A stretch of 50,367 nucleotides of DNA, from NCBI GenBank assembly GCA_003551425.1, contig PUMP01000049.1:1-50367 (forward strand), written 5' to 3'. The position numbers and the translations under genes are program-made. The notes under the pieces are model-generated. The model saw nothing but the letters and a program-made list of their open reading frames with translations, was not told the origin of the DNA and ran no database searches. Positions 48,055 to 50,367 of this stretch are shown in pieces. Every line of letters begins with the position of its first letter. Within the stretch, counting starts at the first letter, position 1. Origin of the DNA: Candidatus Nealsonbacteria bacterium. GTDB taxonomy: Bacteria; Patescibacteriota; Minisyncoccia; Minisyncoccales; PWPS01.

Positions 48055-48239
48055 GAACAGGGCCGTTGATGTGAACTCTCGGGCCCTACTAGCCTGTTCA
48101 ATCTTTTTAAGATTAGACTATATCTTCATCCTATCGCCCGCCGTAGGTTTAAAACCATAGCGTGGCTTTGTATAATAGGAGACGGCGTATTGCCTGGTGT
48201 TTCAAACCAAGCCTCCCCTTTCGGGTCAGTCGTTACGGG

Positions 48240-48270
48240 GTCAAGCATATTTTTGGTAGCTGGGATAAGG
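48240..48270. repeat. Left arm of the ~28-31 nt imperfect inverted repeat enclosing the intron ORF
   Basis: GTCAAGCATATTTTTGGTAGCTGGGATAAGG compared with the reverse complement of 48653-48680, GTCAGCATATTTGGTAGCTGAGATAAGG. There are 27 matching positions, two small bulges and one mismatch. Confidence 0.75.
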
Positions 48271-48272
48271 GG

Positions 48273-48290
48273 GGGGGATTCTCATCCCCC
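48273..48290 (-). other. GNRA-tetraloop hairpin inside the intron, within a 9-nt C-run (rRNA sense)
   Basis: In the sense strand this reads GGGGGAU-GAGA-AUCCCCC, a 7-bp stem located between the ORF stop and the 3' arm of the long stem. Confidence 0.6.
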
Positions 48291-48328
48291 TTAAAGAAAG
48301 TTGAGTGAAAATCTTCTATTTAAGCCCT

Positions 48329-48613
48329 CTAATCAACTGCCCGGGCATCACTCCTTACTAAATATTTCGTCTGCTCTAAGGCTATGATCTTTCTCCCAGA
48401 AAGTTCGCACAGAATCCAACCGATCCACCTCGAAGCTCTTGCGTAGTCATCCATCTTTTTCACTTCTTCAATCATATATAACAAATGTTCTGGGCAATGG
48501 AAGCTGTCTTCTTCATCCAAACCTACCATCCCTCCTCGGTATTTTGGCTCTACGTCGGGAAAATAAGTTTTAATACGACGTTCTAATTCTGCAAGAGTTT
48601 TTGGAAAATACAT
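48329..48613 (-). CDS. Intron-encoded hypothetical protein, 94 aa (97 aa from the GTG at 48622), no recognised nuclease family
   Basis: ORF in the looped-out part of the intron. An SD (AGAGGTG) lies 6 nt upstream of the ATG at 48613. Sequence: MYFPKTLAELERRIKTYFPDVEPKYRGGMVGLDEEDSFHCPEHLLYMIEEVKKMDDYARASRWIGWILCELSGRKIIALEQTKYLVRSDARAVD. Confidence 0.55.
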   Translation of the reverse strand: MYFPKTLAELERRIKTYFPDVEPKYRGGMVGLDEEDSFHCPEHLLYMIEEVKKMDDYARASRWIGWILCELSGRKIIALEQTKYLVRSDARAVD

Positions 48614-48652
48614 TCTCTTCACCTCTTTTCTTAGATAAAGTTATAAACCCCT

Positions 48653-48680
48653 CCTTATCTCAGCTACCAAATATGCTGAC
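48653..48680. repeat. Right arm of the inverted repeat enclosing the intron ORF
   Basis: CCTTATCTCAGCTACCAAATATGCTGAC, which pairs with 48240-48270. Confidence 0.75.
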
Positions 48681-49375
48681 TTCCCACGGTATTTTAATGG
48701 ATCAAAACCTTCCGCTGTTAACGGATAGGAAGACCAACCATTAATTCACCGTTATAAGCCGTATCTCTACCTGTTATTACTAACAGGCGGGACAACAGAG
48801 CTTTCTTCCCACTTTACCGAAAAAGTAAAGCGAGTCAAGCTTCATCCCCGGGGTAGCTTTTAGCTGATGATCTCCGCATTTTCTATAAAAATACGTCGGT
48901 TCACTAAGCCCTACTTTCGTATCTGCGCGGCTTATCCGCCTTGCAGTCAAGCCAGCTTATGCCTTTATACTATCACTCCGATTTCCATCCGGAGTTAGCT
49001 GACCTTTGGACTTCTCCGTTACTCTTTAGGAGAAAAGCGCCCCACTCAAACTGACCACCTGACAATGTTCCTCCACTACTAATGGAAGTTAGAATCAAGA
49101 CCGTAAAAGGGTGGTGTCTCATTGACGACTCCACTGTAACCGAAATTACAGCATCAAAGTCTCCCACCTACGCTTCGCATTTACGGTCAAGACCCAATAT
49201 CAGGATACAGTAAAGCTCCCGGGGTCTTTCCGTCTAGCCACAGGTAACCGGCATCTTCACCGGTATTGCATTTTCACCGAGCGCCTCGTTGAGACAGCCC
49301 CCCAGTCGTTAAGCCTTTCGTGCGGGCCGGAACTTACCCGGCAAGGGATTACGCTACTTTAAGACGGTTATAGTT

Positions 49376-50097: not shown

Positions 50098-50367
50098 ACC
50101 GCCGACGTTTACTGGCGCTTCGGCCGCTCAGCTGCTCTCCGCCAAAAGCGGAGAGCAACCGGCGACGTTAACGTTCCAGCACTGGTCAGGCCTCAGCCCC
50201 TATACATCCTCTCGCGAGTTAAGCAGGGACCTGTGTTTTTGATAAACAGTCGCCAGGGGAACTTTCGCTGCGACCCAGCCACACCTCGCTGTGCTCAGTG
50301 GAATTTTAAATTTGAAATTCGAAATTCCATGCTAAACGCAGTGAGGTATGGCCAGGTAGGTCTTATC

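Follow-up and report, generated by a model that had tools for sequence, protein, structure and literature searches.

The question raised by this locus is why an intron in a 23S rRNA gene should carry, exactly where homing endonuclease genes sit, a gene of quite another kind. The window, by which we mean the whole stretch of 50,367 nucleotides analysed here (contig PUMP01000049.1 of assembly GCA_003551425.1, Candidatus Nealsonbacteria bacterium), holds on its minus strand the 3' half of a bacterial 23S rRNA gene (Rfam LSU_rRNA_bacteria) followed by a 5S rRNA gene. The 23S gene is interrupted by a 745-nt insert with a 94-amino acid (aa) open reading frame (ORF). The answer that we favour, and hold to be probable, is that the 94-aa gene is cargo in an rRNA intron, being neither the endonuclease nor the maturase of that intron. 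A sequence-only reading of this stretch had offered two options, namely a new class of intron-borne mobility or maturase factor and an unrelated cargo gene hitch-hiking in the intron. The second is supported by the presence of a discrete hairpin cassette, and by related copies in another 23S insertion and beside a transfer-messenger RNA (tmRNA) gene. The first is not: the native mobility gene of this intron is a LAGLIDADG_2 gene found in the P6 loop of a homologous intron, about 90% of the relatives of the 94-aa protein are free-standing, its all-helical fold has no nuclease match, and a median isoelectric point (pI) of 6.2 argues against a general RNA-binding maturase.

The boundaries of the insert can be read directly. 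On the minus strand the 5' exon ends in ...CUACCCCGGGGAU at 48844 (the same end can also be given as ...GCUACCCCGGGGAU), the insert runs from a g at 48843 to a g at 48099, and the 3' exon restarts at 48098 with AACAGGCUAGUAGG. With a g following GGGGAU and a g preceding AACAGG, these borders are unique and the boundary cannot shift. The base at -1 of the 5' splice site is U, and the last intron base is the G at 48099 (omega-G). In E. coli numbering the insertion point separates U2449 from A2450 (L2449, the omega site), as placed by the E. coli landmarks m2G2445, D2449, A2451 and Psi2457. The length and site of the insert, its group-I-like boundaries (U before the 5' splice site, final G) and its core element, which is AAGATATAGTC at 48126-48116, were all given correctly by the sequence-only reading.

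That reading had also raised the prospect of an assembly chimera, which is countered by the relatives of the window. Their rRNA loci, reached through homologues of the neighbouring LAGLIDADG protein, share with it the gene order 23S-5S-MreC-PBP2-GreA-LysRS. Five syntenic relatives (L039, L041, L042, L043, L044) have an uninterrupted CCCGGGGATAACAGGCT, with flanks 96-100% identical to those of the window, and another, L040 (GCA_036681025.1), has a homologous 923-nt intron with an identical guide sequence at exactly the same site. Because of these two states in its relatives, the insertion is real, and neither chance nor chimera.

Its predicted pairings mark the insert as a true group I intron of IA-like type with a complete P1-P10 fold. 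Apart from a U.G wobble change, its internal guide, 5'-CUGUUGUCCC-3' (48798-48789), is reverse-complementary to the ligated exon junction GGGAU-AACAG: CUGUU (48798-48794) pairs with AACAG of the 3' exon as P10, contiguous with the P1 strand GUCCC (48793-48789), which pairs with GGGAU of the 5' exon and leaves the U.G wobble at the splice site. P7 is a GACU/AGUC pseudoknot with P3, and hairpins P7.1 and P7.2 between P7 and the 3' strand of P3 are typical of subgroup IA. Unconstrained RNAfold of the core, with the ORF region reduced to a tetraloop, recovers P1, P2, P3, P4, P5, P6, P7.1, P7.2 and P8. A scan with the Rfam group I intron model, a check put forward with the sequence-only reading, went only part of the way: Intron_gpI (RF00028) weakly matches the 3' part of the intron (48097-48180, 17.4 bits, E = 0.33) and falls short of its 50-bit gathering score. 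This low score says little, because the model, insensitive to ORF-split introns, also misses the LAGLIDADG-bearing homologue in L040 (no match at E <= 1).

Comparison of these two introns, on which alone the covariation of the helices was judged, is more telling. All model helices pair at every position in both: P1a shows two compensatory pairs; P1b has two pairs altered on both sides and one change from G.U to G-C; in P5 five of the seven pairs are altered on both sides and a sixth goes from G-C to G.U; and P8 and P9 have been exchanged nearly wholly by compensatory changes. The first ~185 nt of the two introns are ~85% identical. Their divergence begins right after GGGAAGUCAG and ends at YUGACCCCGUA, and together these two strands form the P6 base. 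Within the P6 loop L040 encodes a 202-aa LAGLIDADG_2 ORF, whose best match in the PDB is I-SceI, over the full length (E = 6e-10). As the homologous intron holds this gene in the same P6 loop, the I-SceI-like gene is best regarded as the native mobility gene of the intron; tblastn recovered neither a LAGLIDADG_2 remnant from the window intron nor the 94-aa gene from the rRNA loci of the relatives.

The obvious counterpart is the omega intron of yeast mitochondria (Sc.LSU L2449), which is likewise a group I intron at GGGAU-AACAG and encodes I-SceI, of which the L040 ORF is a homologue. Judged by sequence, the lineage of L040, within the Candidate Phyla Radiation (CPR), carries an omega-like pair of intron and endonuclease at the omega site itself, and the window has the same intron with another passenger. 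The window intron differs from omega in having the 94-aa gene, in a hairpin cassette, in place of an endonuclease gene, and in residing in a CPR bacterium rather than an organelle.

The cassette occupies the position on P6 that holds the I-SceI-like gene in L040. It is bounded by an inverted repeat with arms of 27 nt (48648-48674 and 48249-48275) that are 89% complementary. Pairing extends inward past these arms, such that the predicted duplex between the 5' and 3' untranslated regions (UTRs) reaches -57.7 kcal/mol (z = -7.0 against shuffled sequence). The strong Shine-Dalgarno (SD) sequence noticed in the sequence-only reading, 6 nt from the ATG, is indeed present; what had been overlooked is that it is predicted to be base-paired inside this long stem, its GAGGUG facing UUUUCACU, 16-25 nt past the stop codon. 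An alternative GTG start at 48622 would give 97 aa; the ATG is preferred because the homologues begin with MYYP or MYNK. No T run follows the small GC hairpin at 48273..48290, which the terminator scan did not flag, and a scan of the intron for promoters and terminators gave no excess of such sites over shuffled sequence.

The same architecture recurs with the closest relatives of the protein, P0002 (48% identity; locus L005) and P0003 (45%; locus L008), and with the orthologue of the latter at L028. The SD-covering stem between the 5' and 3' UTRs is significant at all four loci (z = -7.0 for the window and -5.1, -3.4 and -4.5 for the other three), and the arms at the last three cover GGAGG. 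The arms differ in a compensatory manner, reading GGUAGCUG/CAGCUACC in the window, GGUAACUG/CAGUUACU in L005 and GCUGUUUGG/CUAAACAAC in L028, and a pyrimidine-rich 3' motif, TATTT(T)CTTCTCTCTTTTTT, is near-identical in L005, L008 and L028 although the proteins are only ~50% identical. As all 10 of the more distant free-standing family members tested are without such a flanking stem, it is specific to the clade of the window protein (P0001), P0002 and P0003. From these comparisons, the cassette stem is a conserved RNA-level feature of its clade, and more than the P6 of the intron.

The reading of the gene as cargo suggests the following course of events. In the lineage of the window the I-SceI-like gene would have gone from the P6 loop, with a self-contained hairpin cassette now in its place. 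Being without a promoter of its own, the cassette would be transcribed within the pre-rRNA and would exploit transcription at rRNA level. Its stem would join the ends of the insert, allowing P6 and the ribozyme core to fold and the intron to splice out, and splicing should be obligatory because the site lies in the peptidyl-transferase centre. The same stem would mask the SD, so that translation would have to precede synthesis of the 3' arm or await the opening or cutting of the stem, a possible cutter being RNase III, as in rRNA intervening sequences (IVSs). The intron has probably lost autonomous homing. In the T4 td intron, also of IA type with P7.1 and P7.2, the ORF of I-TevI is looped out of P6 and its ribosome-binding site is sequestered, an arrangement by which translation spares the folding of the ribozyme. 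The window intron resembles it in subtype, in P7.1 and P7.2, in having its ORF in P6 and in a ribosome-binding site placed within RNA structure. I-TevI, however, is a GIY-YIG endonuclease that mobilises its intron, whereas the window protein shows nothing of an endonuclease and most of its relatives are not intron-borne.

The protein is not an isolated curiosity. Although a word-indexed homology search with the single sequence recovered the query alone, an exhaustive search found 25 relatives (E <= 1e-3), and profile and locus searches, the profile-based locus search using a 5-sequence alignment, enlarged the family to ~35. These occur across the CPR (Minisyncoccales, Paceibacterota, Nomurabacteria, Saccharibacteria, Berkelbacteria), in DPANN archaea (Micrarchaeota, Iainarchaeum) and in viral contigs. 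Their alignment is marked by an N-terminal YYPxT followed by HLLWM, KAxRWxGW and RxD, with M47 and W63 invariant and A60, R62, G65, R87 and D89 near-invariant. Of the profiles searched, the only one to recognise the family is that of phrog_7775, a phage protein family, which 28 of 30 members match (best E = 6e-15), the window protein over residues 35-87 (E = 2e-4) as a divergent member. Alignment-based AlphaFold2, adopted when the single-sequence model proved poor (pLDDT 56), yields four helices (pLDDT 88, pTM 0.79), in agreement with the mostly helical protein anticipated from sequence alone. Foldseek relates this model to uncharacterised phage proteins in the BFVD (TM 0.65-0.74, probability ~1), and weak tblastn and structural matches include hypothetical proteins of jumbo and T5-like phages.

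Searches for a known function were negative throughout. The window ORF has no Pfam match at E <= 10 and none in NCBIfam or among PDB sequences, and 25-30 relatives have nothing beyond phrog_7775 in searches of Pfam, NCBIfam, PADLOC and PDB sequences; Foldseek against the PDB gave nothing at E < 1. None of the 25 relatives matches a LAGLIDADG, GIY-YIG, HNH, His-Cys box or PD-(D/E)xK profile (E <= 1); positive controls from the same window scored 4e-21 and 9e-15. The earlier statement that the ORF is not a recognisable homing endonuclease therefore stands, neither profiles nor structure matching any endonuclease family. The top Foldseek rows in the PDB were 2rld, deposited as a member of the S23 ribosomal protein family, and 2gsc, presumably also an S23p family member. 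These are at chance level (E 1.3-3, TM 0.26-0.33), and at a non-significant TM of ~0.3 the S23p structures were not taken as evidence. Two further candidates were discarded, a HEPN-like Rx4-6H motif at the C-terminus (some members read RxDxxxGH) since its His is not conserved, and a MazG-like NTP-pyrophosphatase for want of an ExxE/ExxD pattern and of a fold match.

That the ORF might be spurious, a worry attached to the sequence-only reading, is answered by the existence of homologues and by a dN/dS of 0.23 between the L028 and L008 orthologues (about 85% identical). Given the relatives, the phrog_7775 matches, the fold model and this ratio, the family is, as judged from sequence, real and under selection, and not recognisable as a nuclease, maturase or nucleic-acid binder; its pI has a median of 6.2, and many members lie at 4.3-5. 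The domain also occurs at the C-terminus of longer proteins of 183-274 aa, namely L029:2434-3258 (274 aa), L013:2731-3282 (Serratia phage Moabite gp282), P0014 and P0011. In the fusions L029, P0014, P0006, P0011 and Moabite gp282 the N-terminal parts have no Pfam match; that of P0014 bears a zinc ribbon-like CxxC...CxxC.

Small non-endonuclease proteins in rRNA insertions have a known representative in S23p, or 23S_rRNA_IVP (PF05635; Coxiella, Leptospira, CPR). It too is a helical protein in a long-stemmed rRNA insertion, transcribed with the rRNA, and its family likewise occurs as free-standing genes. PF05635 has also been recorded among the rRNA insertions of CPR bacteria, and two of its carriers are 23S group I introns (PMC11270868, main text and Table S3). 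The window protein differs in belonging to the phrog_7775 family, in its length (80-95 aa in the family against about 115-130 aa) and in failing the PF05635 profile, which gave no match for it (E <= 10) or for the 25 relatives (E <= 1). The insertions differ as well. The window cassette has the long near-perfect stem closing the insert that is typical of IVSs; an IVS, on the other hand, takes the place of an rRNA helix tip and is cut out by RNase III with no religation, whereas the cassette sits on the P6 of an intron, rather than on an rRNA helix, and the intron is predicted to splice. The 94-aa gene thus appears to work like an IVS or intron passenger while standing outside the PF05635 family.

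Such a likeness invites the thought that the window copy is a silent, decaying passenger of which only the RNA hairpin is maintained. There is a precedent in Coxiella, whose IVS is removed by RNase III and carries an S23p ORF reported to be degenerating and not detectably expressed (PMC4990558). In the window the SD is sequestered in the stem, the protein departs from the family at the strongly conserved positions Y3F, W46Y, E72S, N79L and R83K, some of these deviations being common to its two nearest relatives, and none of the homologues found is a close enough orthologue of this copy for a dN/dS estimate. We nevertheless regard decay as unlikely, in that the ORF is intact over 94 codons with its own well-spaced SD and ATG, retains both invariant and all five near-invariant residues listed above, and is placed in the family fold by the alignment-based model.

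The wider distribution of the family bears on the other explanations. Its ~90% of free-standing members have no constant neighbour, and the window copy is the sole member found inside an intron. The recurrence of homologues inside rRNA genes, a check named with the sequence-only reading, was therefore only partly realised, in that P0002 lies within a 23S domain I insertion and no other member was found in an intron. The domain I insertion, after about model position 270 and with the gene on the rRNA strand, is present in three independent assemblies; it may be an RNase III-type IVS, the L005 contig ending before the rRNA resumes. In that 23S fragment the helix 9 position, a classical IVS site, is also expanded by a 77-nt palindrome (L005:62-140), and 25 nt are inserted near model position 225. 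Between smpB and the tmRNA gene lie P0003 and its L028 orthologue. L008 had been considered as an rRNA insertion and was rejected as such, being this smpB-tmRNA locus with an extra GIY-YIG insertion. The latter lies between the family ORF and tmRNA (L008:466-1120, compared with L028:910-1016), is absent in L028, and comprises a 75-aa ORF, an 81-aa GIY-YIG ORF and long GC-rich inverted repeats (CCCGCCCGCATCGCTACG...).

Other members are found near different stable-RNA genes. At four DPANN loci (L017, L018, L030, L031; Micrarchaeota, Iainarchaeum) the order 23S - RNase P RNA - ORF is conserved, with the RNase P RNA gene directly 3' of the 23S end and the ORF (~450-710) ~40 nt downstream of it on the same strand. 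L012, L029, L032 and L034 have tRNA neighbours, and L032 a small GIY-YIG gene just past its tRNA. The homologue of Salmonella phage SB13 (T5-like) is within the phage tRNA gene region. A 121-kb metagenome contig, possibly a large phage genome, has six tRNA-Leu genes with five anticodons (aag, cag, tag, taa twice, caa) ~860 nt upstream of its family member (L023:1262-2144). Among ~27 independent loci, a stable-RNA gene encloses the family gene or lies at most 150 nt away at eight, which are drawn from the window, L005, the smpB-ORF-tmRNA locus (L028/L008), the four DPANN loci and the tRNA neighbours; at ~19 there is no RNA gene within 1 kb. Set against 7-10% expected for a random gene, a rough estimate of our own from this window that assumes a small genome, the association of the family with stable-RNA genes is suggestive. 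As to protein-coding neighbours, a gene for a LigT-like 2',3'-cyclic phosphodiesterase / 2'-5' RNA ligase immediately follows the family gene in one CPR lineage (L010:2729-3283, L011:313-867), and in the jumbo Erwinia phage pEa_SNUABM_5 (L038) such a gene is ~2 kb off and a metallophosphoesterase gene adjoins the family gene; these neighbours may hint at RNA repair.

One might see in this distribution a previously unrecognised mobile module, in which a phrog_7775-like gene and its stem masking the ribosome-binding site colonise stable-RNA genes and introns, moving by means of a new mobility or nuclease protein or at the RNA level, with the function of the protein tied to stable-RNA metabolism. 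The sites in question would be the 23S group I intron, the 23S domain I insertion, the smpB-tmRNA spacer and perhaps the RNase P RNA and tRNA loci of DPANN, CPR and phages. We consider such a module rather improbable.

We also give little credence to the narrower proposal that the cassette is spread into conserved stable-RNA genes by its own 94-aa protein, acting as a novel and very small homing endonuclease or as another DNA-level mobility factor. To its credit are the place of the gene in the P6 loop, where L040 has its I-SceI-like gene, the closest relatives in another 23S insertion and beside tmRNA, the members abutting RNase P RNA and tRNA genes and the one in a T5-like phage tRNA region, which are addresses favoured by free-standing homing endonucleases, and a few conserved polar residues (H43, E50, K59, R62, R87, D89). 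Yet an all-helical bundle of 80-95 residues without a match to any nuclease family or fold is a poor candidate, and most of the loci are remote from RNA genes. Of a homing gene one would expect a sporadic occurrence, whereas the family gene is kept on both sides of syntenic pairs (L028/L008, L014/L029, the four DPANN loci) under purifying selection. Furthermore, the arms are conserved as a paired stem with compensatory changes, which argues for a constraint on RNA rather than for a DNA recognition sequence. Equally doubtful is a role as a maturase or chaperone that helps this intron, or structured RNAs generally (rRNA, RNase P RNA, tmRNA, tRNA), to fold: the excess of loci at stable-RNA genes and the LigT-like neighbours are in its favour, but the proteins have a median pI of 6.2, with many at 4.3-5, match no known RNA-binding motif or fold and include a single intron-borne member, and the L040 intron and two sister introns manage without one.

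The reading of the gene as cargo has its own difficulties. The label is defined only by what the gene is not. The position of its ORF is precisely that of homing endonuclease genes, and several relatives adjoin highly conserved RNA genes, a siting that is a habit of free-standing homing endonucleases too. The departures of the window protein from the consensus could mean that this copy is decaying. Finally, the direction of the exchange is read from a single intron-bearing relative, and the cassette might have replaced a homing endonuclease gene or have independently invaded an empty P6.

Passengers that are not endonucleases are already known from rRNA insertions, and what is added here is another protein family in that role. 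Group I introns with single-domain LAGLIDADG genes have been described from the same gene and host group (Tsurumaki et al. 2024, PMC11270868), and the sister introns of the window are textbook examples. In that survey intron ORFs were annotated by Pfam only and 222 23S group I introns were scored as 'ORF-less'; a phrog_7775-like family of intron ORFs is not described in it. As its ORF has no Pfam match, the window intron would count as 'ORF-less' there, and Pfam-only surveys of intron ORFs will miss such passengers. The L2449 site provides a natural experiment, in which one group I intron site is found in three states in syntenic genomes: without the intron, with an I-SceI-like gene and with an unrelated gene. 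The P6 loop of a CPR rRNA intron acts as a landing pad for genes other than those of endonucleases, and the exchange of cargo makes it possible to test directly how a translated ORF and a ribozyme fold are kept apart. The family itself, conserved in CPR, DPANN and phages and unusually often located in or next to genes for stable RNAs, is a sensible choice for structural and functional study.

Table 1. Elements of the L2449 intron and its cassette, in window coordinates
Feature	Position	Strand	Basis
Group I intron (IA-like), L2449	48099..48843	-	Direct reading; relatives with and without intron; helix pairing
Internal guide sequence 5'-CUGUU-GUCCC-3'	48789..48798	-	Pairing with both exons; identical in L040
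P2 hairpin CUGUUA-GUAA-UAACAG	48771..48786	-	RNAfold minimum-free-energy structure; pairing table
P3, 5' strand	48762-48758	-	RNAfold; pairing table
P4	48752-48748 / 48690-48686	-	RNAfold; pairing table
P5 and P5a, A-rich J4/5 and J5/4	P5 48744-48738 / 48700-48694; whole block 48686..48762	-	RNAfold; pairing table
P6 base, 5' strand GGG(aa)GUCAG, pairing with UUGAC-CCC at 48244-48237	48676..48685	-	L040 alignment and pairing; same base in L040
431-nt hairpin cassette on P6 (5' arm, SD, 94-aa ORF, small hairpin, 3' arm)	48245..48675	-	L040 alignment diverges exactly at borders
Shine-Dalgarno AGAGGTG, 6 nt 5' of ATG	48620..48626	-	Direct reading; SD scan
94-aa ORF (stop included), divergent phrog_7775-like member	48329..48613	-	ORF list; homology; fold model
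Small GC hairpin GGGGGAU-GAGA-AUCCCCC, between stop codon and 3' arm	48273..48290	-	Direct reading
P7, 5' strand GACU	48231-48228	-	RNAfold; pairing table
P7.1 CCC-GAAA-GGG	48225-48216	-	RNAfold; pairing table
P7.2 GCUUGGU/ACCAGGC	48212-48192	-	RNAfold; pairing table
P3, 3' strand	48186-48182	-	Rfam; RNAfold; pairing table
Extended P8	48180-48129	-	Rfam; RNAfold; pairing table
J8/7 and P7 3' strand AAGAUAUAGUC	48126-48116	-	Rfam; RNAfold; pairing table
P9, then terminal G	48114-48100	-	Rfam; RNAfold; pairing table

Two further introns interrupt the same 23S gene on the minus strand, one at L1917 (50097-49376) with a 172-aa LAGLIDADG_1 ORF and the other at ~L2593 (47953-47202) with a 156-aa LAGLIDADG_1 ORF. 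Both ORFs match PF00961 (E = 9e-15 and 4e-21) and neither has an SD in the SD scan, just as the sequence-only reading had described them. Ahead of the ~L2593 ORF stands GGGAAGUCA, and this P6-base sequence recurs in the L2449 intron. At 50273-50357 (minus strand), inside the 23S gene and upstream of GGGUCGCAGCGAAAG, there is in addition an AT-rich palindromic hairpin (GGAATTTCGAATTTCAAATTTAAAATTCC) that draws spurious matches to Rfam miRNA families. As L044 has a different AT-rich sequence at this place, it looks like a variable expansion segment or a short IVS.

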